Shown: in pieces, positions 1,436 through 55,017 of the stretch
Position numbering within the stretch: position 1 is the stretch's first letter
Layout of the letters: each line of letters begins with the position of its first letter
From: Octopus vulgaris
Lineage: Eukaryota
NCBI GenBank assembly: GCA_951406725.2
Contig: OX597827.1
Location: forward strand, 74,896,001-74,960,000
DNA: 64,000 bases
Reading direction: 5' to 3'
Made by a program: the position numbers and the translations under genes
Notes under the pieces: model-generated
Databases searched by the model: none
What the model was told of the DNA's origin: nothing
What the model saw: only the letters and a program-made list of their open reading frames with translations

Positions 1436-1567
1436 ATTCTTGACAGCTTTTACCCCGATATCCAGCAACACATCCATGAGCACAATGACCATAAACTGGG
1501 TTGCAAGTGTCGTTAATACAATGACAGTTGTGATGACATTCATCTCCATATGTGCCTTTAGGGCATA
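1436..1567 (-). CDS. Exon A1 of multi-EGF gene; CPKGTYGDECHHNCHCINDTCNPVYGHCAHGCVAGYRGKSCQE
   Basis: 132 bp; polyT-cag acceptor, gtgagt donor; phase 1-1; within ORF 1392..1592. Confidence 0.9.
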
Positions 1568-2352
1568 CTGAAAAAAACCCCAGAAGAAACACGTTTTAAC
1601 TTACGAATTTATTGTTGCCTTTTAAATATCAGTAACATAATATTACTGGCATCATAGTCGACACCAACTGAAGACAGAAACATATTCTTTTGCAAATTTC
1701 ACAGAGTTTTCCTGAAGCTTCCAGATGGTTTGTTTCGTTCACAAGTCTTGAATCAAACCAGGACTTTCACAGAAGATATTTGCCAAACTTTCTTTGCATC
1801 AAAACCGAACCTTAAACAGGCTAAACTAGCTTCTTAATAAATTAACCAACCCAAAACTAAAAATGTATAAGACAGACGACTATTTCAAGCAATTAGTTAG
1901 ATGTCTTCAGGCACACAATCTTCTGCCATCTCCCTCCTTAGTACACACTGTGCGACTCTTGCGTACTTTGTTATCTTCCCTGTTAGCACACATTCTTCGC
2001 CCATGTTAGTATACTATGTAGTCAACGTTGACAATACATGTTATTACTTCCCTTGTCATCACAAGTTGCCGTTCCCTCTGATGTACCCCTAGCTGTACCC
2101 CTTGTTAGTATACTTTGTTATGTTGTTAGCTTAGGCTGTTGTTTCTCTAGTTTGTATATCTTGTTGTCTCCCTTGTTTTTATATTTTGCTGAAAAAGCAA
2201 GTACATTGTTAGTACACTGTTCCATGTCACACACAGTACTGTCACCCTTGTTGGTAATCTTTGCTATATCTTGTATTAGCATCTCAGAATACATAACTAA
2301 AAAGAGCAACAATTGCAATACACAATGACAACAGAAAGCAAACGTTATTAAC

Positions 2353-2487
2353 CTTCTTTACAAGTGCCTGACGTGAAACCAGGTGGACATCCATGTGGGC
2401 ATATTCCAGTGAATCTGTCGCACACGTCCTTATCTCGACAGTTGCATTCCTCATTACAGCCAGAACCATACTTTCCAGGAGAACACT
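2353..2487 (-). CDS. Exon B1 of multi-EGF gene; CSPGKYGSGCNEECNCRDKDVCDRFTGICPHGCPPGFTSGTCKE
   Basis: 135 bp; ttttcag acceptor, gttaat donor; phase 1-1; 8 Cys. Confidence 0.88.
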
Positions 2488-5400
2488 CTGAAAAGAACAA
2501 TTTCTGTTAATATCCACCAGATTTGATGTTAAACAGACTCTGTTAAAGTTTAAAATATCAGATACACTTTACTGACTACATGAATTAAAAATTAGAAGAG
2601 ACAAGTTAAAAGCTACCGAAAGAATTATGTGAAGGATTTCCTTACGATGCCATTTATCAAATGCTGTTTCTGTTATTGCGGAGTTCAGTTTAAAATTAGA
2701 TACGATGAGCATATCTATAATAGTTGATCGAAAGAGTAAGTGCAAGTCACAGATCTATTACACTTGATATACGAAGCCTTCACCACTTGGTGGGCCTTCG
2801 CACTAATACATCCTGAATATGAATTATTGTCAGTTGGGACATGTGTTTCTTTTTTTGCCCAGTCTATTTTTGTATGCTTGTCGGTTCAAGTGATGAACTC
2901 CTCGAGGACAAATGTGAAATCCAGAGAGCGTTTAAGGTGGTTCTTGGAGTTGTTTGGCCCCAAAACAATGACCACCCAGCTTATTTTCAGAGAGTGTGTA
3001 CAGTATCTGAATAGCTAAATTATCTTATGTATTCTTTCTTTGTATACGAGGGTAGTGTGTGATTTGAGGAAGATTTGGCTACTATTTCTTGCAGGTCAGG
3101 ATTGTGTGTGTGTGTGTGTTTCACCTGGACGGATATTCTCGTCAGAATAGTGTTGAAATGGTTGTTGCATCTAGCACTGTTAGCCTTGAACAGACATCTA
3201 AGGTATTCCGTCATTCGCTGTTGGTTTTAAGTGTAAAATATGTTTTTAAGATGGAGAATGCAATTTGAATGGCATTTGGCTGCTATTTTTAACAAATCAA
3301 TCAATCCTACAAAATTTCTTTTGTGGTCCTTTGGTGTTGTAGCAGTGTTGGGCTGTGTAACAGATATGTTTGAAGGAGTATGAGAGATTGATATTGCAGT
3401 ATTTGTGAAGGCGTTGTATATGCAAATGTTTGCTAATGGAGTTATAGAGATTGTAAGGGTTAGATTTTGCTGTACCAACACAATTTGTTCTTCGCTAGCT
3501 TTGGAGTGATTTAATTTTTAGGGCTAACTTAGAATGAGGAATGAAAGTAATGTATGATAGTGATGCATATCTGTTATTGGAAGTTATGTGCAGTTTAAGA
3601 TTAAAAGGAATGGGTAGAGTTTGGGTCTTTGTGGTAACTATACGGAATTTCTCTTGTATTTCATGGCTTAAATATTTTTAAAATCTTTACTCTTATCTAA
3701 ACATATATTTTGAGTAATTACTATACCAATAGATGCCCCTGTTAAGTACTACTCAACAAAATCGCATATGTCTGCTTATAAACTGTCTGCTCTACAAGTC
3801 AGACACTCAGACTTCAGAAATCCGATCCTTTTCTTCCAAAGACTTGGCGGATTAAACTATCTTCTAATCTCTGTCATTAACTCTTTGTTGATTAATCCAT
3901 TATCTCCAATTTGACAGCGAAATTAGGAGAGGTGTTTTATTTCTTCAGAAACTGACCTTCTCTGATGTCCAAATTTACTTTTCTTTACTATATATGAACT
4001 TCTCTAGTTTACGAATTTTAATAATCTTGTAATAATACCCAAACTGGGCGTTGCCATACCATGATGTACCTCAAGGTGTAATTAGATGTGCCACGATAAT
4101 AATACAATATTTTAAAGCAGAAAAGACAAATTAATGTACTTAATATAAAGTACTTCCTTTATTTACTAGCATTACATGTAAAAAAAAAATAGATTGAAGA
4201 AGAAATAAGGTATGTTTATCTTTAATAAATTCAAACATTGAAATATATTGATAAAAATATCAATATTGCGTTTCTCATTCATAACTAAATCCATTTACTT
4301 AATAAGGAAGTCAGTACCAAATAGATCCCTCTGGTTTAATTTGTTTATATTTCCTAGTTGTACAAGAAAGTAACTTGAATCAACTACATCGTGGAACAGC
4401 CATTTAATCAATAGCACACAAAACCGTTAAATCTTATAAAATTTGACATGATTTTAAACGTATTGACGCACAACTGCGAATTGGTCACTAACTCAGCGTT
4501 GTAGTGGATCTATGTCAAGAACCATTTTACAGCTGCGTGACGAAAATTTTGATACCTCATGAAATAAATTTAGATTTATAATGAATTTAACAGTGTGTTA
4601 TTAAATGGCTTCACAATATAGTTGATTATCTAATCATTTACATTTACATGCTAAAATATATTAATAGATTGTTGTTAAATAAATACATTATTTTACTTTA
4701 TTTACTTTGAAGTGTACAGCAGATGAAAAGACATAAACTCTACTGATCGGATTCTTAGGACGTTAACTGTCAAACAATTTACCAATCAACAAAGAATAAG
4801 TTACATAGATTAGAATCTGGACAACCGGACCACACTGTGTTTCCTTTAATGTGTTTTGGTCATGTCAGTAGCATTTCTACCGACTGAGTCCACCAAGATG
4901 GATTTGAGTACACTGAACTAGGCAAGAATTTTGTAAACTGAATATGGTGTACACAGCCACTACCATAACTTAGAGAAATACAGTTTCGAAGTTAAGAATA
5001 CAGATTACTCGTTGATGTATACATCACATAAAGATGTGTTAAGTAGCTATTTTTGTTTCAATTCTGTTTGAAAATTTAATTAAATATAACTAGATTTAAT
5101 ACATGCACATCTTCATCATTTTAAACTTTGTGGATCCTATCTCCCACTAAGAGCCGATTTTTTCAAGAAGGAAAAAAAATATTGGATTAGTTCTATATTC
5201 TTGACGCCAAAAGGATGAAAGGAAAAATTGACATCAGTGGTATTTGAAATCACTGTACAAATATTCTTAAGAAATACTGCAAGGTACTCTATTCGATGTT
5301 TTAACACCTCTGCCTATTCTGCGTCTATTGGCATTCAGTATATTGGGAAAGAAATTTTTTATGTCAGGAATGTAATGCAATGAAATTACCTGTAAAGTAT

Positions 5401-6839
5401 ATTACTGACACTAAATTTATCTTGTGGATTTCAACTCAAAGCCTGCAAACAAAAGTGAACTCAGTAATTTTTTTATCTGGTTGTTCTACTTTATCAACCA
5501 TCGATTTTTGCTTGAAATATATGAATATGTTGATTTCTTTTTGTTTCCTTTTGATGAGACATAGAAAAAAGATACTAAATTGAAAGAATTGTTGCAGTGT
5601 ATTGCAAAATCCTTGCAGTATTTAGCTTTGGCCATTTACGTCTGAAGTTCAAATTCTATTGACATTAACTCCACTTTCCATCCTTTGAGAATTAATAATA
5701 TTAAAAAAAATTTACCAATACCGGAATTGGTTTAATCGACTGATACTGATATCTCCCAAATTTTTCGAAGTATGAAACCTACGGCTGAAAATGAATCTTT
5801 AATGTCTTCATAGTCGTGTTTGCACTTTAACATTGCGTGAGAATATAAATTCCAACAGCTATAGTATTCTTATATGAAAAAACCCAGGTAGTATTAACTT
5901 TGAAACATATTCTACAAAATGTTAACGTAATAGTAGTAGTAGTAGTAGTAGTAGCAGTAGCAGCAGCAGCAGCAGGAGGAATTCAAAAACTGGTGGAAGA
6001 TACGGGGTAATTTATCCTCAGAGCAGAGACGATCCGGAATGCGACAGAGTGGTTTCTTCTAAAGGCAGCCAAGGGGTAGGTCATGATGTTAAAATGTTAA
6101 TGTAGTAGTAGTAGTAGTAAGTATAATTTTTATGGCCGCCCTACTAGGGAGATGCGGTAACTCGAAGCTCAGTAAGTTGTAGTAGTGTTCATAATTTTTT
6201 CAGAATTCTAAGGCACCGTTCTTTCGTTTTTTTTATCACCACCTTGTTTGTGACATTGCTTGGACTGCGCTAATAGTATTTTTGCTTAGAAATGCATTCT
6301 GTTTTGCAGGGGATGCGCATTAATTTTTTTGGGGGGGGGGGCCAACTAATGGAGAAGACAAATATTTTCTTATTTTCCATATATATTGAAACATGGCTGA
6401 TAAAGAAGTCATTATAATGTTCGACAACGGGATGCGTTCCTTGTCAGAGAAAAAAGTGAATACTGGCATACCATTGACTACAGTATGTGACCACCGTGCC
6501 AGCGAAAAAGAAAACCGAGTTGAATACATCTTCGTCTCTAAACAATGCTGAAACAGTGAAGTAGCAATTAAAGAAAACATACGAAGTCGACGGCGACGAT
6601 GACGACAACAACAACGTCAACAGCAATACCGATAATAACGAAGTGAAAGTTAAAGAAGGAAAGATAAACAAAGAAAATTTTAAAGGAAACGTGAACATCA
6701 CTACCGCCATAGATGCCACAACAGTCGCCGCTGCAGCCGCTAAAGCAGCAAGGGATCCTGGAATTAGGATTTTTTTAATTTTATTTCTTCATCGAAGAAG
6801 AATTGAAATTGGCCCAAAAAAATCGTTCAAAGAAATGGA

Positions 6840-8580
6840 AGAAAAGTTGCCCAAAACTCTCCACTCGACGTGATCGGAAACATCTTAAGATACTTGGTTA
6901 CATACTGCTGCATTGGAGTAAAATCGCTCCGAATGAAAAATGTTTCTGAAAGCCAAATCCAGAAATGCTTTGAATGTGCATGACAACAGAAGACCCACAT
7001 CATCCGAGGAAAGAAATTTGGGACGATTGAAGCTATTGCAGCTAACACCTTGCTAAAGCTGTGGTGATGAACGTGAAATATCACCAGAAATATCCATCGC
7101 CAGATGGTTAGTGGCCGCCGTCTTGGCAAGTATAGAGGAAGACAACGTGACTATCTTGGAGGTAAAGAAAATACCTCAACAAAACTGGTCATGTATAGGT
7201 ATGAAACTAACATTACAATGTATGCAAACCTATATCGACGAGCTACCTAACCTAATAGGCCTGCCGGATGGTACTCACCTGTCAACCAAGATGCCATATA
7301 TGTGAACCATTTAAAGGCTTTCTGCACTCAAGCAAGGAAAACAAAACTCCCACTGCTACCAACACCACAACCACCACAAAAACACAAAATCATGAAGACG
7401 TGCTCAAGATTCCTTCGCCCACACCAATACAAAGAAATCTACTCCCGGCTACCACGGAAATCAAGCTTCACCTGGACGTCCTGCCTCCCAAACCAACATC
7501 AACAGCAATGATATGGAGAGAGAAGAGCAGACCGAATAATGTATCACTGTGACAAACAGGAAGAGACGAAAGGGGAGGAAAGTACATACACCTGCTCAAG
7601 AACACAGCAAGACGAAAGTCAAACACCACTACTGCAACCCAATTCGCAACCACTCCAACAAAAATAACAACGACAACTTTTACAAAAACAGGAGCATCTT
7701 CAACAATAACTTGAAAACATAGAAACAGCCAATAATGACACTGCAAAAACAAGAAAATACTTTCAATTTTAGCCGAAATGTATCCATCAATTTCACTTTG
7801 TGAACAAATGCAACAGTGAATTGATGGATTTTGTAAAGGAAAATAAAATCAAAATTACAACACAGGGAAAGGAATTTAAGGATTTCATCTTCAAACTCCG
7901 AAGGACAGATTATTAGTTAAAATGTCCTCAGACTTTTAAAAACACTCAGCGAAAAATTCCTAATTAGTGTGGGATTTTTAAAAATCAATTGACAAAAGGC
8001 TTTTGGGAGGGCCTTTTAAAAAACATTTGCCAATAGAGAGGCCCAAAACTTCCGGGATTCTCGAAAATCAAGGAGAGCGACCTCTTTTTCTTTCTCCAAC
8101 TAGCACGACTATGATGAGAGTTGGGGCGTGAATGTACGTGGCTTGGGATCAGCTTGGAAGCAAGGACACTTACTCAACGATCTCAGGTTTCTTGATTTAG
8201 ATGTGGTTACCATTAGTGAAACAGTTGGGATGTACAGAGCGACTAATCTAAAAACACTACCTTCGCTATTGCTTACATCTAGGGCCATCAACTTACCATC
8301 CAGGCTCAGGAGGATCTGCCGTACCTCGAAATGCAGGCCTTTGCTAAACAGCACTGCCGCTCCTTTTCCCATTCCAAGCCAAAAGATTCGTAAATCTTAA
8401 AATTGTCGAAAATAGGTGTTAGATCGCTGTTTCAGAAGTCCTACTTTCGCTGACGGCCTACACATCCGTAGTTAGTAACCTGAGGTCGTTGAGCAGATAA
8501 CCTTGCTTCCAGGGCGACCACAATTCATGAACATTTGTACAACTCACTCTTAAGCCCACCATGATGATCGGAAAGAGCTT
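6840..8580. mobile_element. Tx1/L1-like LINE fragments: ORF1-like region plus two opposed APE-endonuclease N-terminal fragments
   Basis: NVRGLGSAWKQGHLLNDL..DVV.ISET on + (8111-8222); GKGAAVLF..DGKLMALDV..FRLVALY on - (8223-~8570); paralogs near 41640-43130 and 59040-60780. Confidence 0.6.
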
Positions 8581-17737: not shown

Positions 17738-17872
17738 GTTCCTGACATTCGGAACCCCCATATCCAAGTGCACAGCCTCTAGGACATGCACCATGAATCG
17801 GGTTGCAGTTGTCATCATCAATACAATTACATGTTTTGTTGCAATGTAGTCCATATGTGCCTTCATCGCAGA
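17738..17872 (-). CDS. Exon C1 of multi-EGF gene; CDEGTYGLHCNKTCNCIDDDNCNPIHGACPRGCALGYGGSECQE
   Basis: 135 bp; ttttacag acceptor, gtaagt donor; phase 1-1; 8 Cys. Confidence 0.9.
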
Positions 17873-27687: not shown

Positions 27688-28974
27688 GAGTGAAAGAGCA
27701 GTGCATGCCATCAAAGTGACACTGGGGTAAAATATACGAAGCCCAGTATGCCCCTCATGACTACCCGTCTGATAAGGGTACACCAGGCACATGCATTCCA
27801 ACTATATGTGCGCAACATGGTGATCTCATATCAAGATAAACAGCGCATGACCTTGCAGGTGGGGCACAGTTAGAATTTTCTACTGGTCGAGTAACCCATC
27901 CCACTCAAAAGGTATCTGAATAAAGGTTGTTTAAGGATGTTGAACAAAACACCCTTTCTACTTTTGTTAGCCACTCCGCGCTTTCTTTATATCTCGCCGG
28001 CTTCTTCTACAGTCTTCCTCCAAATTCTTTACTTTCTTCCGCATCTCAAATCAGTTCTTAGTGTTGGTGTCCCTCTGTTTCCTCATATAGACACCTTCTA
28101 TTTTATTGGAACAGTCTATGCCGTTCGAAACCTTTGCATTTATCATCATTTTTTTTTTCAATTTGGCTGTTTTTTTTGAGTCAATTCTTCCATCCGTTTC
28201 ATATTCTTCATGTTTTACCCTTTCATTACCGCTCTCTGCTACCGTTGTTTCACTCTCCTTCTGCTAATTTATTATTATGTTTCTCTGAATTTCTTCAATC
28301 TCTACTGCCATAACCCAGTCGTCCCCACATATTACTCTCGTTTAGTCTATCAGTCACAGGGCGGATGCTTCAAAGCCTCCTTTCTTCATCCCATATTCTC
28401 TTCATTTGATTCATGAAGCCTCTTTTATTTGGCTCACTTCTCAGCCAGTATTCGATTACTATTTAGTTTACTTCTTTTTATTTTGCACTTTTGACTGCGA
28501 CTTTGGTCCTGATCAATAGCTTGATGACGATCAGCCAGAACTTGACCAGATACTCCCTGCCTGCCGAGCGCGACATCTTTACCATTTACAGTTCCAGTCC
28601 TGTTAGTGCAGTTGTGGTTATTATTTAAATTTGACATCACTCATTTAGAGGTGCCATTTGTAAGATTGTGCAACCACCAGTATTTTTATTGTGACACCAT
28701 CACTAGGTGAGTTGCCAGTCAAGGCTCCGAGAGTCCACATCAACCCTCGTGTACAGTTTTTAGTGTCATTCTTGTTCATTCCAATGTTTTATATTTTTAT
28801 ATTTGACATTTTCACTCCTGGGAATTTTTGTTAAGGTGGCTAGCTGGTAAAGTCGTTAGCACGTTGGACGAAATGCTTAATAGTATTTCACCCGTCGTTA
28901 CATTCTGATACAAACCCTCTAGAGAAAGTGTCTCGAATGAAAATACTGGTGGTTGTTAAATCACTTTCCTTTGT

Positions 28975-31690
28975 ATGAGAGTAATGGATAAAAGTATTAA
29001 TACAAACAACGGCGTAAATGTGGACGAAACTTCAGGTGACGGGCTCTTGCCTTGTGGGTGAGTAGCACAGGCCCGGTCGTCATTATATGTTTGCCAGGAC
29101 AAAATGGTCTAAGGTGATGAAAATAGCTGCCATAGAATGTTATTTTTTTAGCAGACCTGTTGATGATGAAGGGAAACCTATAAAAGGATACAGAAAGAGA
29201 ATGCGTGGCATTTGGATGGAGATGCTCAACTTAGATATTTCAGAGAGAGTCTACATGACCAAGCAAGGATAATAAGGAAGAAAGAATGGTTAACAGCATT
29301 AGAATTTGATGAGATTAAGAAGACGGGGACGATCAAAAACACTGTGAGTGAAGTTGTATTGTTACAGAAAATGTTGATGAGTTGTATTGAATGAAGTTGC
29401 TCTGGAGAATGGTGCTGACTTAAGTTTTGAGAATATCGAAGGATTGAGCGACGAGGATAGAGTAATGATTGAAGATATCACTAGTATCATTCAGAAAAAT
29501 TTGAACATAGAAGTAAATGAATTCAAGAAATTGGTATAATTTTGCTCAGCGGATTGACTCGGAAGATGAATAAAATACTGAAAGTAACTAAGAAAGATAA
29601 TATAAATGCTACAGGTAGATTGGTTAAAACTAGTATCATCTATATAAGAAGAAAAGTAACCCTCAAACCAAATCGTAAAAGAGGAAATGAGACAAAAGAG
29701 CCTTGGAAGAAAAGAAGGATAATGTAATCAATGAATGAATCACGAAAGCATATCAACACTCTGAAAAGAAAGAAACAAGGTAAATCAAAACGGAGAAATA
29801 TCAAAACTAGAACGTAGGTTTAGTATCACGAAAAAGGGATTGAATGTAGCCCTGCAGATATACAAAAATCAAGGGATCTGACCACAGAATTTTACAACAT
29901 AAAATCAATATATTGTTCCAGCCAGATCAGAAAATGGTTTATCAGCAGATGGAGAGGTTAGCAGCAATGAGAAACCGAACGCTGAAGAAAGTAGGAGTTT
30001 TTAGAGTAACATCTGAGATAATGGAAGAAATCATCAGAAAGATGCTTGAAGGAATTAAGATCCGAGAAAATTTAAATGGAACAGAGCAGTATACGAATAT
30101 CAACTGAAATGTGACCGAGAAGACAACAATGATCTCAAACTGGAAGTGTCCTGGCCCAGATGGGGTTCAAAGGTAATGGCTGGAAAATTTCCCAGAATTA
30201 TACAAAAGAATAGATATGCAAATGGATAAAATGATCAACAACAGGGTATAAATCCCAAAATGCATTACCACAGGGAAAACAGCTTTTTACCAAAGACGAC
30301 TCCAGTAAATGTAATGCAGTGGAAAATTACCGGCCATTCTCCTACTTACTACTGATTTGGAAGTTGATGTCAGGAATGTAACTAACTGTGCGTATGACAT
30401 GCTGAAAATAACTGACAAGCTGCCAGTGGAACAGCAGAGATGCACATAGGCATTGATATGTAGTACCCAGGAACAAACCCTGAGAAATAATTACTCCAAG
30501 GTCCAAATAGACAAGAACAGTGAATCACTCCTTTGTGGGTTTATGGCATCAAAAAAACGAAATAATCTCACATATTGTGAGTGAATTTAGCAAACTGATC
30601 CAAAAGGAATACAAAAAGAGGCACGATAACAGGGCTAAGTTTGTTCACTAGAGATTGCATGAGAAGTATGGTCTTGAAAGAACACAGACAAAGCCTGCTA
30701 AAATATAGTAGGCTACTATAGAACAACACACAGAAAATACTAAAGGCAGTGAATAGAGAGCAGGTGGTCAAATGTGGAAATAGGAGGAAAAGACGAAAAT
30801 GATATTCAAAGAGAGCATTATAAACAGATTGGAAAGAAACCTCTGCATGGTCAGTATTTGAAAGCCACTGAAGATGTACGTGAAACAAAAATCTGGGCTT
30901 CATTAAAAACAAAAGGGCATTTAAAAAAAGAAACAGAGTGCCTTGTTAAAGCAGCTGAAGATAAAGCAATAAAAACAAATAATTTGAAAAAATATGTGTA
31001 TGGGGAGGTGTCAGCAAAATGTAAAGTGTGAGGTATTTCAGATAAAACAATGGTGCACATTGTTGCAGAATATCCCAGGTTGGCTCATACAGAATATACG
31101 AAATGGAGACATGACCAAGTATTGCAAGTTTTTCACTGGGCGCTTCATCAGAAATGGGGATTTGAAGCTCAAAGTACTTGGTATCACCATTGGGTTGAGA
31201 GGGTGCTTGAGTCGGAGAAAGCAAGATTTTATGGGATTTTCCCATTCAAACAGATAAGAAGCTAGGAAATAATAAACCAGATATAACAATAATAGACAAG
31301 GAAAGGCGAAGTTGCTTACTAATTGATCCATCGTGTCCGTTCGATTCCAGGATTGTTAAGAAAGAAGAAAAACATTTTAATATCCAATCCTTTAAAATTT
31401 GAAATTGCGAGAATTTGGAGCATGAAATATGTAAAGGTTGTGCCTGCAATAATTGGTGCATTAGGATCTGGGAGTAAGGATATAGATGAATGGTTGGAAG
31501 AGATTGGAATAGAATGTCCTGAAGAGCTTCCACAGAGAGTGTGCCTTTAGGGGCAGGAAAGATTATCAGAAGGGTTTTCATCACTTGAAAGATTAACGAA
31601 AGCTTGAGGATATATAAAGTTACTGGTAGTAACCCATTACCCACATAAATTCTAGCAAGAATAAGAACGAACCTGAGTCAAATAATATCT
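28975..31690 (+). mobile_element. Degraded R4/Dong-like LINE (paralogs ~50930-53645 and 727-1150)
   Basis: KWS..ECY, KPLHGQY, RHD and IIGALG fragments in many short ORFs; approximate ends. Confidence 0.8.
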
Positions 31691-31972
31691 TTTATTGTTA
31701 GAGGAACAACAAAAGAGTCGATTTCGCAAGGACAAATTAGAAAGCGAAACAAAAAATATACTTGAAAAGAAAATCCTCAAGAGAGTAGGTTGGCGGGGTA
31801 ATTTTCAGTCAAATGAGGAAAAGAATTACACTAGGCCAATCACAGAAGGCCAGATAAATTCTGGCAGGTGAAGTCCTAACATAAAATTCGTCCATAAGTG
31901 ATTTGAACTAAATATATTCACTTTGAAATTACTTCATAATTCCAATGGTATAATCAGTTGTTTCATACTCAC

Positions 31973-32104
31973 ATGCTTGACAGTCTATACCCTGATATCC
32001 AGCAGCACATCCATGAGCACACTGACCATATACTGTGTTGCAACTGTCGTCAATACAATGACAGGTTTTACTACAGTTATCTCCATATGTGCCGCTAGAG
32101 CATG
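31973..32104 (-). CDS. Exon A2 of multi-EGF gene; CSSGTYGDNCSKTCHCIDDSCNTVYGQCAHGCAAGYQGIDCQA
   Basis: 132 bp; polyT-cag acceptor, gtgagt donor; phase 1-1; 8 Cys. Confidence 0.9.
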
Positions 32105-32694
32105 CTGAAAAAAACCCAGAAGAAACACATTTTAACTTACAAATTTATTGTTGCCTTTTAAATATCAGTAACACAATATTACTGGCATCATAGTCGACAC
32201 CAACTGAAGACAGAACCATATTCTCTTGCAAATTTCACAGAGTTTTCCTGAAGCTTCCAGATGGTTTGTTTCATTCACAAGGCTTGAATCAAACCAGGAC
32301 TTTCACAGAAGATATTTGCCAAACTTTTTTTGCATCAAAATCGAACCTTAAACAAGCTAAACTAGCTTCTTAATAAATCAACCAACCCAAAACTTTGTAA
32401 AGTCAAAAACTTTAACCAACAGAAATCTAAAAATGTATAAGACAGACGACTATTTCAAGCAATTAGTTAGATGTCTTCAGGCACTCAATCTTCTGCCATC
32501 TCCCTCCTTAGTATACGCTGTGCGACTCTTGCATTCTTTGTTATCTTCCCTGTTAGCACACGTTCTTCGCCCATGTTAGTATACTATGTAGTCAACGTTG
32601 ATAATACATGTTATTACTTCCCTTGTCATCACAAGTTGTTGTTCCCTGTGATGTACCCCTTGCTGTACCCCTTGTTAGTATACTTTGTTATGTT

Positions 32695-35467: not shown

Positions 35468-35697
35468 TGTTGTTAGCTTAGGCTGTTGTTTCTCTAGTTT
35501 GTATATCTTGTTGTCTCCCTTGTTTTTATATTTTGTTGAAAAAGCAAGTGCATTGTTAGTACACTGTTCCATGTCACACAGCACTGTCACCCTTGTTGGT
35601 AATCTTTGCTATATCTTGTATTAGCATCTCAGAATACATAACTAAAAAGAACAACAATTGCAATACACAATGACAACAGAAAGCAAACGTTATTAAC

Positions 35698-35832
35698 CTT
35701 CTTTACAAGCGCCTGTCTTGAAACCAGGTGGACATCCATGTGGGCATATTCCAGTGACTCTGTCGCAAACGTCCTTATCTCGACAGTTGCATTCCTCATT
35801 ACAGCCAGTACCATACCTTCCACCAGGACACT
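35698..35832 (-). CDS. Exon B2 of multi-EGF gene; CPGGRYGTGCNEECNCRDKDVCDRVTGICPHGCPPGFKTGACKE
   Basis: 135 bp; ttttcag acceptor, gttaat donor (weak); phase 1-1; 8 Cys. Confidence 0.88.
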
Positions 35833-43300: not shown

Positions 43301-45980
43301 AGCTTTAAGTTTTGTTTTTGTGATTGGTTGTTATTGCTTGGGGTGTTTTCTTTTTGTGAAATGTTGCAGTGGTGCTAGTATTGGTGGAGATGGTTGTAAT
43401 AGCGGTGGATGTGTTGGTAATCGTAGTACAAGAGAGGTTGGCGTTGCTGTAGGTGTGTTTGTGGATGTTGTGCGCATATTTTTGAGGATTTTGGCGTGCG
43501 TTGGCGAGGGAAATGATACTTTATGCTTTTTATATTTCTCTTTCAGGTGGGTTTTCTCCCTCGTTTTCACTTTGTGTTGCAGAGGTATCAGTATCTGTAG
43601 AATCAGAGTGCAAGTCTGTATGTATTTGACCTTAAAGGAGATGGAGTGGGGACAGGAGAGGCCGGGCTTCATTGAAAGGGACACCCTGAGTGTCGGGTGA
43701 GCGTTATAATTATTCTTTCTGCTGAGGGTGGTGGTGGTGGTGCATCTGTTACTCGCGTTATTGGTATTGTTGATGTTGTTGTTTTCCTTGGTTTCTTCCA
43801 GCATTTGCTGATTTTGTTGTTCTTGTTGATGATGCTGTTGTTTCCAGAGTTGTTGCAGCCTTTATTGTAGTTCACTGATAGTTGACTTGTGGCCTATGGG
43901 GACCTGTTATTGACAATAAGTAGGCCCTATTGTTCCCTATTTTCTGTTTAGAAGAGAAAGCTTTCTAGTGGCCAACCCCTCAACCTCCACGTAGGTGGTG
44001 CCATGGCCTTCTAACATCAACCGTAAGATGCAGCAATTCTTCTCCAAGAATACCAAAGAGATCTGGGATCTTGTGGATTGTGTCTGGTTTAATGTAGAGG
44101 TGTACCTTCACGCTAATCCCAGACCGATTTCCACGACGGGTTCGCTTCACCTCCAGGCGGCTGTTATTCTCTCCCAATACGACTGTAGTACTGCTATACC
44201 AAAGACTTTTAGAAATTGTCCATGATCTTCGACCCGAAAGATCTGTCAAGGCCTAGATTCAATCCTAAACCATCATCCCTCACACCCTCAACTAGACCCA
44301 CGCCCCAGAAATCTTGAGGTGTTTTCCCGTTAACGGTTTTGTGCAGCTAATGCAATTCAATGAGTTCCTGGCAATATTCTAGATGCCAAATACTCAACTT
44401 TGGTCTTCGTTTGATCCACGACTAGAGTTCTGTTAACAAGAAATGCTGCAGAAAAGCTCGTTCTTATTTTCTCTCCCGTCATTCACATCATCGCTGTGAT
44501 TTACATATCTCTGTAGGTGATACAGCTTTAAGACTTGATCATAACAATCAAAAAAATAAGCGCTTCAATCTGGTCTAGGTTGTCTTAGGACAGGTACGAC
44601 AGTTAGGCGATAGTACACCACCGAGGCGATATATGCATTTGCTATAATGATAATGATGATTTCAAATTTAGGCACAAGGCCAGCAAGATTGGGGAAGGGA
44701 GTAAATAGATTACATCGACCCCAGTGTTTAACTAATACTTAATTTATTGACCACGAAATGATGAAATGGCAAATCGACTTCCACGGAATTTGAACTGAGA
44801 ACATAAGGTCGAACGAAAATACTGCTTAGTATTTTACTCAGCATATTAATGATTCTACCAGCTCGCCATAATAATAATATTAATAATAATATCAATAATA
44901 ATATTAATAATAATAATAATAATAATATTAATAATAATGGTAATAATAATGGTAATAATAACGACGACGACAATTTTGCAACAGGGCAGCAAGTTCGGGG
45001 TAGGTGATGAGTTGATTTCATCGACCTCAGTACTCAACGACTACTTACTTTATCGACCCTGAAAGGATGAAAGGCAAAGTCGACTTGGGAGTAATTTGAA
45101 CATGAAAAAGAAGAAGAAGAACAACAACAACAACAACAACATGATCATCTTTATCATCATTAAGATATTCATGTACTGAGTGCATTAGATACGGAGAGGT
45201 AACTTAACCTGTGTGGGTGTTTCTTCCACAAATTCTAGGATGTTAGACATGTCTGTTGTTCACATTTACTTCCCTCACTTTTCATTAATAATCTCTATAT
45301 ATATAAACGGCAAAATGTCTGCATGCGTGTCCTTTATACGTATCCACAATTTTTCAGTTAGAGGGCTCGCACTTTCTATGGTCATTCAAAACCGTCCAAG
45401 GCTAGTCGAGCACATCTTTACATTTCCCCAGTCACCCTGTAAAACCATTAAAAAATCAATAGAAGTGACTTTTTTGTGAATTTTCTTTCCAAAACCCAAT
45501 CAAAATGCCCGAAACTTGATACGCCAATTGAATGCCAGCTAGCTGTATGTGATTGGTCGGAGATTTGGACAGTACTCGCGTGTATGTGTGCATGCACGCA
45601 GCTGTATATGCATGCACTAGCACTATGACCCAGCGTTGCCAGGTCATAGTGCTAGTTCAACATAACTCAATACTTAGCAAAATAAGTATTTATATACTTA
45701 TGCTCTTGTAGAGAGTACGACAACTTGAATTAATCAATACATGTATATACAATACATGTATATACAATACCTATATACAATACATGTATATAGGTGAGAT
45801 AGACATTGTTAAGCTAAGATTATAACAATCAAAATTTTAAGTAAGACATCTCAATATCAAACAGAAAAAAAATTTTTAATGAGTTTATGCACTTGTATCC
45901 CACTTAATTAAAGTTAAGAACAGATCATGTGTGTGAGTTGTGGGGAAATAGTTTGATTATTAGTATAGACGTATACTTAC

Positions 45981-46115
45981 TTTGCTGACAGGCGTAACCC
46001 CTGTATCCAGATGCACAGCCTCTAGGACATGTGCCATAAATCGGGTTGCAGGTGTCATAACCAGAACATCTACATGTTTTGGTGCAATATTGTCCATACT
46101 CGCCTCTCGCGCAGA
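45981..46115 (-). CDS. Exon C2 of multi-EGF gene; CARGEYGQYCTKTCRCSGYDTCNPIYGTCPRGCASGYRGYACQQ
   Basis: 135 bp; tttcacag acceptor, gtaagt donor; phase 1-1; 8 Cys; hand-translated. Confidence 0.9.
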
Positions 46116-48340
46116 CTGTGAAACAAACGTATTATACCTTATATTGCGTAAAACAGTAAAGAACTCGTTTCATAATTGAAAAGATGGCAAAAAATCAATG
46201 AATGACTGATGACCAAGACAACCATAATAGGAAATCGTTTAACCAACTACGGCGCCTCAATATTTTCGATTGATCTGCTAGTAACAGCGACCAAATCTTC
46301 CTCAAACAATACCCTGTTAGACTACAAACAAGAAACATTAAACAATGGAGACCTAAATATATCTTAAGATGGCCACGGGTGGAATATCTATAACCGTAGA
46401 TCTTTCTAATCAGTCAGGATTCATCAGAATATAAACAACAGCAGTAGTAGTGGTTGAATAACATGGGACTGCCTTCTCGATCTGAGTTTACCCAAATGCA
46501 AATAACATCATCAGCAACAACAAAAGCAATGATATACAAACAAATAAGAAAGCCAAATCTCTCAGCAATCGCTCAACTTGCTAGTACATCGTATCAACGA
46601 GGGAACTGACTTGGGCTTCATCTTTACCATAAAGTTTGAGGTCATCCATGAATAACAAGTGGTTGACTATTTGTTGCTGGCTTTTGAATACATACCCAGC
46701 TTTTGCTTTCCTGAGAATCAGTGTTAGTGAAATCAAGCACAGTACAAAGATCAATGGAGACAGGCAGTCCTCTTCGAAGATGCCTTTCTGATTTCTACTT
46801 TCCCTAAACTTCTTTCGTATGCTGCCAGGTCCGTCCTCCAATTCACCATACTTTTTCCAAGCAATCGCTCAACATTCGATGCAATACCAAATAGGTTCAT
46901 ACATTCCATAATCCAAGAATGTAGGATCATATCGTACGCCTTACGATAGTCGGTCCGTGACATGGCTAAGTTACTTTTCCTCCTCTTACAGTCTCTAAGA
47001 ACAGTTTTGTCTATCAGGAGTTGATCCTTGGTACCTCTGCACTTACGCTAGCAACCCTTCTGCTCATGTGGCAGGACTCCAAATTTTTTTCCAGATGTTC
47101 GTACATTGACTCTGCGAGTATTCCAGTTAATAATTTCCACGTAAGTGGCAAACAAGATATCGGCCAGTAGTTGTGTACCGTATTGCCTTTTTCGAATGTT
47201 TTTCAAGCACAGCACTGTCCTACCCAATGTCAACCACTCTGGTGTTACTTGGTCGGCATTTAACAAGGTGTTGATTTGTGCAGCTATTCGTGCATGACAT
47301 TCACCAAATCATTTGATCCAGTAGCCTTGAACTCCATCTGATTCCGAACTAAAATGACTAGTCCTGTCTGTTTTGGACAGACTACTGTTTGTTTCAGTTC
47401 TTGCAACCATAACCATTCAGCATCCTTTTCGTGCTCCTTATCTTTGCTCCAGATGTCACTCGAACATCTTTGACTTTCATTGTTATTTGGTATCAACTTT
47501 TCATCTGTACATTCTCCATTTATTCCTTTATAGTCGTGTCGGTCTGCATGGGGAAGACCCATAGAATCAACACATTTTCTCCCTCAGTCACAGCTTCAGG
47601 ATGATGTTTATACAATTCGTCAGCGGTTTTGATTTTATAATGCCGACATATTGTCCAGTGTAAATACTGGCCTACTCTTTCATGTCTTGCTTTATATTCT
47701 GCAGATGCTAAGACTCTACACCCTGAGATTAGGTGGTCTATTGTTTCAATCTCATCGTTACAGAATCGGCATTTTGGGTCAGCTCCATTTTTCATCACAT
47801 TGGCTTGGTAGTTGCGGGTAAAAAACCTTTGGTCTTCAGCAGCCAATATGAAACCTTCACTCTCTGCTTTTAGCCCTGAACTTCGTAACCATTGGTGCAT
47901 GTGTTTCTGGCGGACATCAGCTTGTTTGCTACGGGCCACATACTTGCCATGGAAAGGTTTCTGTTCCCATCTGCTAGCTAAATTTTCATGTGCTTTTGTC
48001 TTTGCAATTAATTTTATTTTCTTTGCAGCTGTAGTTGGCGCATTTCCTTCAGCCTGCTCAATCTGGTGGGTATCTAAGAGATCAGCAGCGAATTTTTTGC
48101 TCTCTTTGAGAATAGAGTGAAGTTTTTTAGGCCTTTCATGTTTTCAACAAGTTTTAGCATCCAATCGTTGGTTGCTTCAAGGTATTTGGCCAGTCCGATT
48201 GTGGTGGTTTTGTATGTAAGTTCAAGCTGGATCAAACATCGACCTCCCTGAGCTCTGGGAAGGTAAAGGCGATCCACCTCTGCCTTTGGATGGTGCATCT
48301 TATTACAAGTCAATAGCTTGCGGATTTTCCTGTCAAATTT

Positions 48341-48390
<50 letters not shown>

Positions 48391-49010
48391 GAGTGAGAGA
48401 GCAGTGCATGCCATCAAAGTGACACTGGGGTAAAATATACGAAGGGTACACCAGGCACATGCATCACAACCATATATGCGCGACATGGTGATCTCATATC
48501 AAGATAAACAGCACATGACCTTGCAGGTGGGGCCCAGTTAGAATTTTCTTCAGGTTGAGTAGCCCATCCCGCTCAAAAGGTCCCTGAATAAGGGTTGTTT
48601 AAGGATGTTGAAAGAACCACCCATGTTTCCAGAGGTGAATTATTCAAACCCCAAAGAATCCCTCTCAACACATGGCTATGATGCTCCCCCACTACTTCTG
48701 CTCGTGATCAGAGATGCACATATCGTCAGCCACTAAGGGACATGCTCAACTGGTTAAGGTCAAACAACTGACAAGCAAATCTGTGGTATTGAGCAGAATA
48801 TTTGCTGTAGCCCATCTTTTATACCAAGACAAAACAATGTACATGAAAACACTTCCAATCAGTTAAGATCAGAAGCCATGAGAGCAGCTGCCTGGTACTG
48901 CATCACGGCATTTATTATTATTATTATTATTATTACTAATATTATTATTATCCTTTTTTTTACTATTGTTAATATTTTCTCTGGTCCTACATGAGTTTGA
49001 CTTTATTATT

Positions 49011-49041
<31 letters not shown>

Positions 49042-49117
49042 CTAATATTATTATTATCTTTTTTTTACTATTGTTAATATTTTCTCTGGTCCTACATGAG
49101 TTTTGACTTTATTATCA

Positions 49118-49166
<49 letters not shown>

Positions 49167-50929
49167 TATTGAGTGAGAGAGCAGTGCATACCATCAAAGT
49201 GACACTGGGGTAAAATATACGAAGCCCAGTATACCCAACATCACTACCCGTCTGATAAGGGTACACCAGGCACATGCATCACAACTATATGTGCGCAACA
49301 TGGTGATCTCATATCAAGATAAACAGCGCATGACCTTGCAGGTGGGGCACAATTAGAATTTTCTACTGGTCGAGTAACCCATCCCGCTCAAAAGGTCTCT
49401 GAATAAAGGTTGTTTAAGGATGTTGAACAAAACACCCTTTCTACTTTTGTTAGCCACTCTGCGCTTTCTTTATATCTCGCCGGCTTCTTGTACAGTCTTC
49501 CTCCAAATTCTTTACTTTCTTCCGCATTTCAAATCAGTTCTTAGTGTTGGCGTCCCTCTGTTTCCTCATATAGATGCCTTCTATTTTATTGGAACAGTCT
49601 ATGCTGTTCGAAACCTTTGCATTTATCATCATTTTTTTTATTAATTTGGCCTTTTTTTGGTGTCAATTCTTCCATCCGTTTCATATTCTTCCTGTTTTAC
49701 CCTTTCATTACCGCTCTCTGCTACCGTTGTTTCACTCTCCTTCTGCTAATTTATTATTATGTTTCTCTGAATTTCTTCAATCTCTACTGCCATAACCCAG
49801 TCGTCCCCACATATTACTCTTATTTAGTCTATCAGTCACAGGGCGGATGCTTCAAAGCCTCCTTTCTTCATCCCATATTCTCTTCATTTGATTCATGAAG
49901 CCTCTTTTATTTGGCTCACTTCTCAGCCAGTATTCGATTACTATTTAGTTTACTTCTTTTCCCGCATTTCATTCTTTTACTTTGCACTTTTGACTGCGAC
50001 TTTGGTCCTGACCAATAGCTTGATGACAATCTGCCGGAACTTGACCAGATACTCCCTGCCTGCCGAGCGCGACATCTTTACCGTTTACAGTTCCAGTCCT
50101 GTTAGTGCAGTTGTGGTTATTATTTAATTTTGACATCACTCATTTAGAGGTACCATTTGTAAGATTGTGCAACCACCAGTATTTTTATTGTGACACCATC
50201 ACTAGGTGAGTTGCTAATCAAGGCTCCGAGAGTCCACATCAACCCTCGTGTACAGTTTTTAGTGTCATTCTTGTTCATTCCAATGTTTTATATTTATATA
50301 TTTGACATTTTTACTCCTGGGAATTTTTGTTAAGGCGGCTAGCTGGTAGAGTCGTTAGCACGTTGTACGAAATGCTTAATAGTATTTCACCCATCGTTAC
50401 ATTCTGAGTTCAAATTCCGTCGAGATCGACTTTGCCGTTCCTCCATTCGAGGTCGATAAATTAAGAACCAGCGGAACACTGGGGTCGATGTATTTGAATA
50501 GTCCCCTCCCCCAAAACTTCAGGCCTTGTGCCTTTACTAGAAAAGATAATTGTTGTAGTTGTTTTTGTTATCTCAACTGAATCACAAGTGTCGAATCGTT
50601 GGCGACTAAACCAGCAACTCCACAGAACCTGCTCTGTGGAGAGTGTATTTTTCTTTCTATTTGCTAACCCTTCAGGATGAAATACAAGGCCTGTTGAAGA
50701 GTAGATGAACTCAGCGGAGTCAGCGGTCACCTACACAGCAACTTTTCATTAGTTGTGCATCCGATTAGATCATTACCGCTCAGAGTACTGGGTTGGTGTA
50801 CAATGCAAGATAGCTTACTTAAACTTTTAAAGGGTAGAGAGGCCCTGATGATTTTTTTGATACAAACCCTCTAGAGAAAGTGTCTCGAATGTAAATACTG
50901 CTGGTTGTTAAATCACTTTCCTTTGTATG

Positions 50930-53645
50930 AGAGTAATGGATAAAAGTATTAATACAAACAACAGCGTAAATGTGGACGAAACTTCAGGTGACGGGCTCTT
51001 GCCTTGTGGGTGAGTAGCACAGGCCCGGTCGTCATTATATGGTTGCCAGGACAAAATGGTCTAAGGTGATGAAAATAGCTGCCATAGAATGTTATTTTTT
51101 TAGCAGACCTGTTGATGATGAAGGGAAACCTATAAAAGGATACAGAAAGAGAATGCGTGGCATTTGGATGGAGATGCTCAACTTAGATATTGCAGAGAGA
51201 GTCTACATGACCAAGCAAGGTTAATAAGGAAGAAAGAATGGTTAACAGCATTAGAGTTTGATGAGATTAAGAAGACGGGAACGATCAAAAACACTGTGAG
51301 TGAAGTTGTATTGTTACAGAAAATGTGAACGAGTTGTATTGAATGAAGTTGCTCTGGAGAATGGTGCTGGCTTAAGTTTTGAGAATATCGAAGGATTGAG
51401 CGACGAGGATAGAGTAATGATTGAAGATATCACTAGTATCATTCAGAAAAATTTGAACATAGAAGTAAATGAATTCAAGAAAGTGGTATAATTTTGCTCA
51501 GCGGGTTGACTCGGAAGATGAATAAAATACTGAAAGTAACTAAGAAAGATAATATAAATGCTACAGATAGATTGGTTAAAACTAGTATCATCTATATAAG
51601 AAGAAAAGTAGCCCTCGAACCAAATCGTAAAAGAGGAAATGAGACAAAAGAGCCTTGGAAGAAAAGAAGGATAATGTAGTCAATGAATGAATCACGAAAG
51701 CATATCAACACTCTGAAAAGAAAGAAACAAGGTGAAATCAAAACGGAGAAATATCAAAACTAGAACGTAGGTTTAGTATCACGAAAAAGGGATTGAATAT
51801 AGCCCTGCAGAGCTACAAAAATAAAGGGATCTGACCACAGAATTTAACAACATAAAATCAATATATTGTTCCAGCCGGATCAGAAAATGGTTTATCAGCA
51901 GATGGAGAGGTTAGCAGCAATGAGAAACCGGACGCTGAAGAAAGTAGGAGTTTTTAGAGTAACATCTGAGATAATGGAAGAAATCATCAGAAAGATGCTT
52001 GAAGGAATTAAGATCCGAGAAAATTTAAATGGAACAGAGCAGTATACGAATATCAACTGAAATGGTGACCGAGAAGACAACAATGATCTCAAACTGGAAG
52101 TGTCCTGGCCCGGATGGGGTTCAAAGGTAATGGCTGGAAAATTTCCCAGAATTATACAAAAGAATAGATATGCAAATGGATAAAATGATCAACAACAGGG
52201 TATAAATCCCAAAATGCATTACCACAGGGAAAATAGCTTTTTACCAAAGACGACTCCAGTAAATGTAATGCAGTGGAAAATTACCGGCCATTCTCCTACT
52301 TACTACTGATTTGGAATTTGATGTCAGGAATGTAACTAACTGTGCGTATGACATGCTGAAAATAACTGACAAGCTGCCAGTGGAACAGCAGAGATGCACA
52401 TAGGCATTGATATGTAGTACCCAGGAACAAACCCTGAGAAATAATTACTCCAAGGTCCAAATAGACAAGAACAGTGAATCGCTCCTTTGTGGGTTTATGG
52501 CATCAAAAAAACGAAATAATCTCACATATTGTGAGTGAATTTAGCAAACTGATCCAAAAGGAATACAAAAAGAGGCACGATAACAGGGCTAAGTTTGTTC
52601 ACTAGAGATTGCATGAGAAGTATGGTCTTGAAAGAACACAGACAAAGCCTGCTAAAATATAGTAGGCTACTATAGAACAACACACAGAAAATACTAAAGG
52701 CAGTGAATAGAGAGCAGGTGGTCAAATGTGGAAATAGGAGGAAAAGACGAAAATGATATTCAAAGAGAGCATTATAAACAGATTGAAAAGAAACCTCTGC
52801 ATGGTCAGTATTTGAAAGCCACTGAAGATGTACGTGAAACAAAAATCTGGGCTTCATTAAAAACAAAAGGGCATTTAAAAAAAAGAAACAGAGTACCTTG
52901 TTAAAGCAGGCTGAAGATAAAGCAATAAAAACCAAATAATTTGAAAAAATATGTGTATGGGGAGGTGTCAGCAAAATGTAAAGTGTGAGGTATTTGAGAT
53001 AAAACAATGGTGCACATTGTTGCAGAATATCCCAGGTTGGCTCATACAGAATATACGAAATGGAGACATGACCAAGTATTGCAAGTTTTTCACTGGGCGC
53101 TTCATCAGAAATGGGGATTTGAAGCTCAAGTACTTGGTATCACCATTGGGTTGAGAGGGTGCTTGAGTCGGAGAAAGCAAGATTTTATGGGATTTTCCCA
53201 TTCAAACAGATAAGAAGCTAGGAAATAATAAACCAGATATAACAATAATAGACAAGGTAATGCGAAGTTGCTTACTAATTGATCCATCGTGTCCGTTCGA
53301 TTCCAGGATTGTTAAGAAAGAAGAAAAACATTTTAAAATCCAATCCTTTAAAATTTGCAATTGCGAGAATTTGGAGCATGAAATATGTAAAGGTTGTGTC
53401 TGCAATAATTGGTGCATTAGGATCTGGGAGTAAGGATATAGATGAATGGTTGGAAGAGATTGGAATAGAATGTCCTGAAGAGCTTCCACAGAGAGTTTGC
53501 CTCTTATGGACAGGAAAGATTATCAGAAGGGTTTTCAGCACTTGAAAGATTAACGAAAGCTTGAGGATATATAAAGTTACTGGTAGTAACCTATTACCCA
53601 CATAAATTCTAGCAAGAATAAGAACGAACCTGAGTCAAATAATAT
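50930..53645 (+). mobile_element. Degraded R4/Dong-like LINE, copy-2 paralog
   Basis: Colinear with 28975-31690. Confidence 0.8.
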
Positions 53646-53929
53646 CTTTTATTGTTACAGGAACAACAAAAGAGTCGATTTCGCAAGGACAAATTAGAAA
53701 GCGAAACAAAAAATATACTTGAAAAGAAAATCCTCAAGAGAGTAGGTTGACAGGGTAATTTTCAGTCAAATGAGGAAAAGAATTACACTAGGCCAATCAC
53801 AGAAGGCCAGATAAATTCTGGCAGGTGAAGTCCTAACATAAAATTCGTCCATAAGTGATTTGAACTAAATATATTCACTTTGAAATTACTTCATAATTCC
53901 AATGGTATAATCAGTTGTTTCATACTCAC

Positions 53930-54061
53930 ATGCTTGACAGGTTATACCCCGATATCCAACAGCACATCCATACTTACAAGTACCATATTGTTTGTTGCAT
54001 ACGTTGTAACGACAATGACAGGTGTCCTTACAGTCATATCCATATGTGCCTCTAGGGCATA
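53930..54061 (-). CDS. Exon A3 of multi-EGF gene; CPRGTYGYDCKDTCHCRYNVCNKQYGTCKYGCAVGYRGITCQA
   Basis: 132 bp; polyT-cag acceptor, gtgagt donor; phase 1-1; 8 Cys; hand-translated. Confidence 0.9.
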
Positions 54062-54882
54062 CTGAAAAAAAAACCCAGAAGAAACACGTTTTAACTTACG
54101 AATTTATTGTTGCCTTTTAAATATCAGTAACACAATATTACTGGTATCATAGTCGACGCCAGCTGAAGACAGAAACATATTCTCTTGTAAATTTCACAGA
54201 GATTTCCTGAAGCTTCCAGATGGTTTGTTTCATTCACAAGGCTTGAATCAAACCAGGACTTTCACAGAAGATATTTGCCAAACTTTTTTTGCATCGAAAT
54301 CGAACCTTAAACAAGCTAAACTAGCTTCTTAATAAATCAACCAACCCAAAACTTTGTAAAGTCAAAAACTTTAACCAACAGAAATCTAAAAATGTATAAG
54401 ACAGACGACTATTTCAAACAATTAGTTAGATGTCTTCAGGCACACAATCTTCTGCCATCTCCCTCCTTAGTAGACGCTGTGCGACTCTTGCATACTTTGT
54501 TATCTTCCCTGTTAGCACACGTTCTTCGCCCATGTTAGTATACTATGCAGTCAACGTTGACAATACATGTTATTACTTCCCTTGTCATCACAAGTTGCCG
54601 TTCCCTGTGATGTACCCCTTGCTGTACCCCTTGTTAGTATACATTGTTATGTTGTTAGCTTAGGCTGTTGTTTCTCTAGTTTGTATATCCTGTTGTCTCC
54701 CTTCTTTTTATATTTTGTTGAAAAAGCAAGTACATTGTTAGTACACTGTTCCATGTCACACACAGTACTGTCACCCTTGTTGGTAATCTTTGCTATATCT
54801 TGTATTAGCATCTCAGAATACATAACTAAAAAGAGCAACAATTGCAATACACAATGACAACAGAAAGCAAACGTTATTTTAC

Positions 54883-55017
54883 CTATTTTACAAGTGCCAT
54901 CCTTGTAACCAGCTGGACATCCATGGGGGCATTTTCCATTGACTCTGTCGCAATTCCAACGAAAAGGACAGGTGCATTTCTCTTTACAGCCAGAACCATA
55001 CGATCCCTCAGGACACC
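54883..55017 (-). CDS. Exon B3 of multi-EGF (MEGF10/11/CED-1-like) gene; CPEGSYGSGCKEKCTCPFRWNCDRVNGKCPHGCPAGYKDGTCKI
   Basis: 135 bp; acceptor ttttcag, donor gtaaaa; phase 1-1; pattern C-x8-C-x3-C-x-C-x5-C-x6-C-x3-C-x8-C; lies in ORF 54647..55030. Confidence 0.9.
   Translation of the reverse strand, partial: GVLRDRMVLAVKRNAPVLFVGIATESMENAPMDVQLVTRMALVK

Follow-up and report, generated by a model that had tools for sequence, protein, structure and literature searches.

Positive selection on EGF-like exons between homogenised introns in a predicted receptor gene of Octopus vulgaris

A 64,000-nt stretch of the Octopus vulgaris genome (assembly GCA_951406725.2, contig OX597827.1, C14:74,896,001-74,960,000, hereafter the window) holds EGF-like exons that differ strongly from one another within nearly identical introns. 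Positive selection on the inter-cysteine residues of these exons holds, and the introns are mosaics in which recombination among units is active. Our favoured reading is a rod of EGF-like repeats diversified by selection, with introns levelled by recombination, which most likely serves non-self recognition; we place it slightly above even (about 0.55). Its evolutionary part is held with good confidence, and the immune role, for which analogy with related receptors would speak, falls a little short of even odds. Statistically the pattern is strong. The forces at work are known in combination, but here they act exon by exon, which is unusual, in a receptor of a known kind. Bare positions below are window positions and those prefixed with C14 are genomic.

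EGF-like exons in the window

A six-frame motif scan identified exactly eight 8-Cys exons in the window, all on the minus strand and all in phase 1-1, in the order A1 B1 C1 A2 B2 C2 A3 B3 and with outer limits at 55017 and 1436. Class A exons are 135 nt long, class B 132 nt and class C 135 nt; labels A and B were swapped in the original prediction made for this stretch.

54883..55017, minus strand, EGF-like exon A1, 135 nt, divergent 'prime' type
53930..54061, minus strand, EGF-like exon B1, 132 nt, prime type
45981..46115, minus strand, EGF-like exon C1, 135 nt, prime type
35698..35832, minus strand, EGF-like exon A2, 135 nt
31973..32104, minus strand, EGF-like exon B2, 132 nt
17738..17872, minus strand, EGF-like exon C2, 135 nt
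2353..2487, minus strand, EGF-like exon A3, 135 nt
1436..1567, minus strand, EGF-like exon B3, 132 nt

All eight have AG and GT splice sites, 8 Cys and an open frame, as the original prediction had stated. Its nucleotide differences were reproduced for six of six exon pairs (22/132, 30/132 and 30/132 in class B, 29/135 in class C, 32/135 and 10/135 in class A), as were the synonymous-only codons of the same pairs (1, 0, 0, 2, 1 and 1), and its amino-acid counts match after the intron-split codon is added. A seventh pair, A1/A3, differs at 35/135 nt. The probability that 18–20 changes spare all 8 Cys by chance was 0.003–0.009 per pair (3/3 pairs).

The flanking introns had been described as differing by a few percent, which was recovered in 12 of 14 comparisons of 300-nt flanks (1.0–7.4%); the remaining two, both with the flank downstream of A2, differ by 16–17%. 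The A2-B2 intron (window 32105-35697) measures 3596 nt vs ~820 nt in the other units, an insertion of ~2.8 kb. Flanks of up to 2 kb differ by 1.0–5.4% (12 comparisons), and the array units are kilobase segmental repeats with 91–97% identity, exons included. One homogenised unit and its partner serve as an example:

28903..32694, no strand assigned, homogenised unit, 97.3% identical over 3.8 kb to 50855..54653
50855..54653, no strand assigned, partner of the unit above

Despite this identity, the B exons inside the two units differ at 30/132 nt. Such exon divergence in near-identical flanks is not sequencing error, because O. sinensis records carry the same repeat types with 0–3 differences per repeat.

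Positive selection on the exons

Codon models were run with our own code on 20 distinct in-frame exons (131 codons) out of the 30 exons of the whole array described below, after dropping 2 frame-shifted exons and 8 exact duplicates. Model M0 gave an omega of 3.35, with twice the log-likelihood difference (2dL) at 21.3 vs omega=1. Under M2a, omega was 11.2 at 42.5% of codons (2dL 72.0 vs M1a, and 16.2, 39.4 and 21.0 for the three classes tested singly), and M8 gave a 2dL of 72.7 vs M7 and 71.9 vs M8a. Recombination inflates site-model tests, and tree-free pairwise omega was therefore also computed, with values of 4.6, 3.1, 3.2 and 2.0 (p 0.0002, 0.003, 0.013 and 0.13) at a nonsynonymous divergence (dN) of 0.14–0.36 and a synonymous divergence (dS) of 0.05–0.11. 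The original prediction had inferred strong positive selection on the inter-cysteine loops and proposed a formal dN/dS analysis; the inference is borne out by the M0 and pairwise values, and dN exceeds dS in the formal analysis.

Mean nonsynonymous and synonymous diversity (pN/pS) was 0.177/0.083 in class A, 0.215/0.043 in class B and 0.166/0.089 in class C. At the third positions of 62 amino-acid-invariant codons, 0/39 two-fold sites were variable and four-fold pi was 0–0.11. Cys was retained at 160/160 positions across the 20 distinct exons. Codons for the same residue differ at only 3–4 of 77–106, so saturated dS is excluded. Of the refuting scenario that the original prediction had named, old exons with saturated dS among homogenised introns, the homogenised introns were found, and the saturation was not (dS 0.05–0.11).

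With the single A-B-C triplet of O. bimaculoides as outgroup, the A1-B1-C1 (prime) type has 26–31 private changes vs 2–4 (p <2e-5 in 3/3 comparisons) and lies 65 changes from that triplet vs 38–42 for the other types. This type appears to have changed in a burst in one lineage.

A mutational process without selection (RNA-editing copy-back, hypermutation or patches from other EGF exons) would fit the sharp exon boundaries, the many codons changed at 2–3 nt (11–24 of 131 codons per pair) and a CpG density of 25/kb in exons vs 16/kb in flanks. It is nevertheless highly improbable, given that synonymous sites and Cys have escaped change and that exons have the lower share of transitions (0.37 vs 0.51). 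A>G accounts for 23/152 exon changes vs 32/284 intron changes, no more than a small excess, and RNA-editing copy-back was rejected. Conversion between classes was rejected as well, with 3/275 minority sites in a 12-mer shared with another class (donors within classes A, B and C only).

A neighbouring paralogous array (C14:74.01-74.09 Mb, with 11 distinct exons out of 14 and 9 out of 11) gave pN/pS of 0.070/0.064 and 0.083/0.108, with flanks at 0.07–0.17 in noisy alignments. As pN is close to pS there, tandem EGF exons of this genome do not share the pattern in general, and a family-wide dN excess was rejected on this one array.

Homogenisation of the introns

Between same-type copies (the six-exon higher-order duplicate), exons differ at 14/804 positions (1.7%) and flanks at 143/6966 (2.1%). 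Between different types, exons differ at 97/402 (24.1%) and flanks at 82/3561 (2.3%), so intron distance is independent of exon type. In a four-gamete test on 60 informative intron sites, 54% of pairs fail, and neighbours fail less often (p 0.0006). For 34 sites upstream of A, the observed 55% was reached by clonal simulation in 0/300, 0/300 and 2/300 runs. The introns are therefore mosaic, with recombination among units active. Of the earlier claim that exons evolve faster than introns, dN above dS stands; the introns, mosaic at ~2% whatever the exon distance, offer no clean clock.

Such a pattern could also arise with no acceleration at all, if the exons were old paralogues under purifying selection in which conversion erased intron and synonymous differences, mimicking dN>dS. 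The flat, mosaic introns fit this, as do the stability of the types in O. sinensis, the exon dS above intron distance and the mildly raised flank diversity (up to 0.05) 50–250 nt from some exons. However, synonymous sites show almost no variation even within a few bases of variable codons, which would call for tracts shorter than ~7 nt; with ~40% of codons variable, ordinary conversion tracts would be too long to remove only the silent changes between them. The O. bimaculoides record, moreover, is single-triplet, and the prime type stands much further from it than the others. We consider this explanation improbable. Both processes are needed, homogenisation for the flat ~2% introns and selection for dN above dS.

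The predicted gene

The window exons are predicted to be part of one ~387-kb Octopus single-pass receptor gene with an A-B-C exon array in its ectodomain. The array comprises 30 exons (11 A, 9 B and 10 C) from C14:75,093,755 to 74,891,447, of which 8 lie in the window, 21 upstream and 1 downstream. The remaining parts of the gene, in order, are as follows:

C14:75,181,103-75,181,044, minus strand, signal peptide
C14:75,180,644; 75,163,825; 75,159,546; 75,155,512, minus strand, starts (approximate) of N-terminal exons
C14:75,135,835, minus strand, EGF exon upstream of the lectin-like exons
C14:75,126,397-75,126,137 and 75,106,394-75,106,200, minus strand, lectin-like exons
C14:75,098,936, minus strand, EGF exon between the lectin-like exons and the array
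C14:74,881,225-74,881,091, minus strand, last EGF exon, single-copy
C14:74,876,155-74,876,080, minus strand, transmembrane (TM) exon, hydrophobic, with consensus splice sites, matching the end of O. bimaculoides record P0005
C14:74,863,756-74,859,954, minus strand, Lys/Glu repeat exon, putative member of the gene
C14:74,857,548 to 74,793,823, minus strand, PTP exons, putative members of the gene

This layout agrees exon by exon with P0005, with O. sinensis model P0002 (XP_029645473.2) and with O. bimaculoides P0001. P0005, which extends from the signal peptide to the TM and contains a single A-B-C triplet, maps exon by exon to the O. vulgaris gene; P0002 joins an F5/8C domain to A-B-C-A'-B'-C'. 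The signal peptide was called by eye, and its hydrophobic 20-mer is identical (20/20) to P0005. The four exons that follow it (C14:75,155,369-75,181,103 region) are 53–72% identical to O. bimaculoides, and the single-copy ectodomain exons overall 53–80%. The single receptor of the original prediction was thus recovered as a single-pass gene layout, and the extension of the locus that it proposed yielded the signal peptide and the TM exon; the cytoplasmic domain is a probable assignment, based on strand, phase and family layout.

A 46-kb block, C14:74,963,782-75,056,154, is doubled at 99.5% on both sides of a 100-N gap at 75,009,836, which doubles 7 exons. It is likely to represent two haplotypes joined in the assembly, and there would therefore be ~23 repeats per haplotype. 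Two of the 30 array exons, both outside the window and in one block copy, each have a homopolymer run altered by a 1-nt indel. An assembly artefact or a decaying pseudogene would account for the doubled block, the frame shifts in these two exons and in the Lys/Glu exon, and two PTP domains without catalytic Cys. However, for each frame-shifted array exon the shift falls in a homopolymer run and an intact twin exists, the O. sinensis models hold the same types in matching order, no Cys of the 20 distinct exons is lost, and the PTP change is common to O. bimaculoides. An artefact or pseudogene is scarcely credible on this evidence, and the block artefact alters the repeat count and leaves the pattern untouched.

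The C-terminus of P0002 comes from an intronic repeat present in most units and is likely a false exon. The introns also hold what we take to be LINE-like reverse-transcriptase fragments, labelled from motifs in the list of open reading frames.

window ~60476-60604, 42853-42981, 8265-8393, minus strand, intronic repeat matching the P0002 C-terminus, and copies

Domains of the predicted protein

P0002 matched a galactose-binding/F5-8C domain above cut-off (PF22633, 44.6 bits; PF00754, 33.8 bits), and its lectin exons map to the O. vulgaris locus at 97–100%. The lectin-like domain matched FBP32 (3cqo_A) in sequence (E 3.3e-12), with the DG calcium motif present (AVDGT). Residues 100-196 of P0005 may resemble a degenerate second F5/8C-like domain, a lead from an ESM Atlas search (best 0.88); fold prediction of P0005 without alignment was unusable (pLDDT 35.6).

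The EGF-like repeats of P0005 gave sequence matches to Tie2 and SCARF1 (SCARF1 chain 8hna_B, E 5.5e-5), in agreement with the MEGF/SCARF-type repeats originally proposed. Pfam returned no match for 3/3 single array exons, a homologue search with the last EGF exon returned none, and neither an EMI nor a ZP domain was matched by Pfam on P0005.

The Lys/Glu exon and the two PTP domains probably belong to the same polypeptide as the TM exon: the PTP exons lie on the same strand after it, the Lys/Glu exon is phase-compatible with it, and the family layout agrees. An active classical PTP has an HC(x)5R P-loop and a WPD loop in its first domain (D1). Here the P-loops are without the catalytic Cys (D1 QSSNGVGRSG with WPE; D2 HGSDGMKNSG), which is common to O. 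bimaculoides P0001, and both domains are predicted to be catalytically dead. HCSAGVGR and WPD are intact in 2/2 PTP paralogues examined. The Lys/Glu exon (3.8 kb) consists of Lys/Glu/Pro repeats of 45 nt and shorter, in which the frame is shifted by units of 44 and 46 nt, probably through homopolymer errors.

Paralogous genes

Between C14:73.3 and 74.7 Mb there are at least 9 paralogous lectin exons and at least 7 PTP exons. They form a cluster (C14:73.28-74.73 Mb) of at least 7–9 paralogous lectin-EGF-PTP genes with two-exon EGF units. The active site is intact in the single PTP examined there, and two of the arrays are inverted copies (~99% over 25 kb). A compact paralogue with EGF, a lectin-like domain (one exon twice), few EGF and an intact PTP motif is found at C30:7,634,211-7,671,696, and further lectin exons on C3, C9, C12, C20 and C25.

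Variation between animals and species

No exon substitutions separate the two block copies (0 in 7/7 exon pairs). Across eleven O. sinensis repeats, each compared with its best O. vulgaris match, 12/480 residues differ, and 9 of these 12 are residues of another copy here, as reshuffling among copies would give. The O. sinensis models have the same repeat types in matching order. As far as seen from the block copies and O. sinensis, variability between animals appears to be little. The suggestion of a cephalopod variable-receptor system was accordingly not upheld: the diversity lies among repeats of one gene, and the paralogous array nearby has no dN excess.

Comparison with known receptors

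MEGF10, CED-1 and Draper have an N-terminal EMI domain and an NPxY/ITAM tail. The octopus gene shares with SCARF1/SREC, MEGF10/11 and CED-1/Draper the 8-Cys EGF-like repeats in an extended single-pass ectodomain. The SCARF/MEGF10/CED-1 layout first proposed does not fit it, in that no EMI was matched and there is instead an F-type-lectin-like domain, a probable tail of tandem dead PTP domains and a set of young diversified repeats.

By layout the closest family is that of molluscan receptor-type protein tyrosine phosphatases (RPTPs) with MEGF and galactose-binding domains (GBD). In Biomphalaria sudanica, the SudRes1 region linked to schistosome resistance encodes such MEGF/GBD RPTPs, with EGF number differing between haplotypes, according to the accessible part of the source (PMC12297450). 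'Subgroup 1C' of B. glabrata LG5R, in a region linked to schistosome resistance, has the same layout in the accessible part of its account (PMC13712769). As far as these partial accounts go, the molluscan proteins share with the octopus gene a signal peptide, a GBD/fucolectin-like domain, multiple EGF, one TM and a tandem PTP (a probable assignment in octopus), together with clustered paralogues and variable EGF number. The octopus gene differs in its long triplet-built EGF array, in both PTPs lacking the catalytic Cys and in the large Lys/Glu repeat. The combination of positive selection inside one gene and homogenised introns is an octopus feature not found in the accessible parts of the snail accounts (PMC12297450, PMC13712769).

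Venom PLA2 and conotoxin genes have exons that diverge faster than introns and a conserved signal peptide, and form multigene families of secreted proteins. In the octopus, by comparison, the units are exons within a single receptor, and the homogenised introns widen the contrast further. PRDM9 zinc fingers combine concerted repeat evolution with positive selection at a subset of codons. The same is described, in the accessible part of the source, for WD, ANK and TPR repeats of fungal NLRs (HET-D, HET-R; PMC4986451). Unlike both, the octopus array has each repeat as its own exon in kilobase introns, is predicted to be extracellular and has ~40% of codons involved. Literature searches at the level of result listings, mostly without subscription journals, returned no description of the gene or pattern in cephalopods, and a search by six accessions returned no paper.

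Proposed origin and function

Under the favoured reading, a single A-B-C triplet, like that of the O. bimaculoides record, would have been expanded via unequal crossing-over, and one triplet lineage (the A1-B1-C1 type) altered in a burst. Conversion and crossover would continue, tolerated in introns and between same-type exons and rejected where a type would be erased, with selection having driven and still maintaining the distinct types. Phase 1-1 exons could splice in any order, so that copy-number changes would leave the frame intact. The lectin-like domain and an EGF rod with varied surfaces are predicted to bind ligand, and the dead PTP domains may serve scaffold signalling or, as a decoy or inhibitor, act on the neighbouring paralogues that keep an intact catalytic site. 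Far less likely is a decoy/scaffold receptor holding a panel of binding modules in one gene, in which intron homology would drive exon swapping and copy-number change, selection would keep modules distinct, and alternative splicing or population variation in module order would make the rod differ per animal or cell.

Several points weigh against the favoured reading. The codon-model values are uncorrected for recombination, one of four pairwise omegas is not significant (p 0.13), and the relative-rate test is valid only if the single triplet of O. bimaculoides is a genuine outgroup rather than the product of a collapsed assembly. The exons of same-type copies have diverged no more than their flanks, so selection was episodic or past, and ongoing selection is not supported. 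Exon dS is 2–4 times the intron level; the exons are therefore older than their introns, and the ten-fold exon:intron contrast overstates the rate. The TM-PTP link is spanned by no record, and the Lys/Glu exon is frame-shifted in A-runs of the assembly. No exon-exon joint was found among 15 of 92 joints listed (4 of 24 runs: X1, X2, X4, X5; window 45900-55100), where intronic repeats swamp the signal. An X2 contig (408 nt, depth 4.4) aligns with 45981-46330 as far as the C1 donor and leaves 58 letters unmatched; this is a hint, from a run whose RNA status is a guess. The fucose-binding F-type lectin motif is HX24RXDX4(R/K) in the accessible part of its source (PMC5712786). In alignment to FBP32 (3cqo_A), the octopus domain departs from it (His->Ser, Asp->Thr), and the analogy with the snail lectin receptors is therefore weaker. 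The snail resistance links themselves are associations to gene-rich regions and not proven functions.

The same evolutionary mechanism could instead act on a gamete-recognition or sperm-surface protein, which we regard as unlikely but a serious candidate. The accessible parts of the sources describe oyster bindin as diversifying F-type lectin repeats via positive selection, recombination and splicing (PMC5712786), and ascidian HrVC70 as variable between the Cys of 12 EGF repeats (PMC9265791). The likeness to the octopus gene is that repeats of the F-type lectin or EGF kind have diversified at residues between Cys or in the pocket, and in bindin the repeats also recombine. The 53–80% identity of the single-copy ectodomain exons, set against the 20/20 signal peptide, points the same way, and species-level change with little block-copy difference would fit reproductive proteins. 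Against it, no ZP domain was matched by Pfam on P0005, and the family nearest in layout has links with parasite resistance; bindin and HrVC70 belong to the acrosome or the egg coat and are strongly polymorphic between individuals in these partial accounts, whereas the octopus protein is a predicted single-pass receptor.

The gene offers a very clean within-gene case of positive selection vs concerted evolution, with exons 24% apart in flanks 2% apart, and in such arrays intron distance is unusable as a neutral clock. Named codons and repeat types are available as test targets. For the animal, the finding suggests an arms race centred on a single surface protein of the octopus, a member of a family known from snail parasite-resistance loci.

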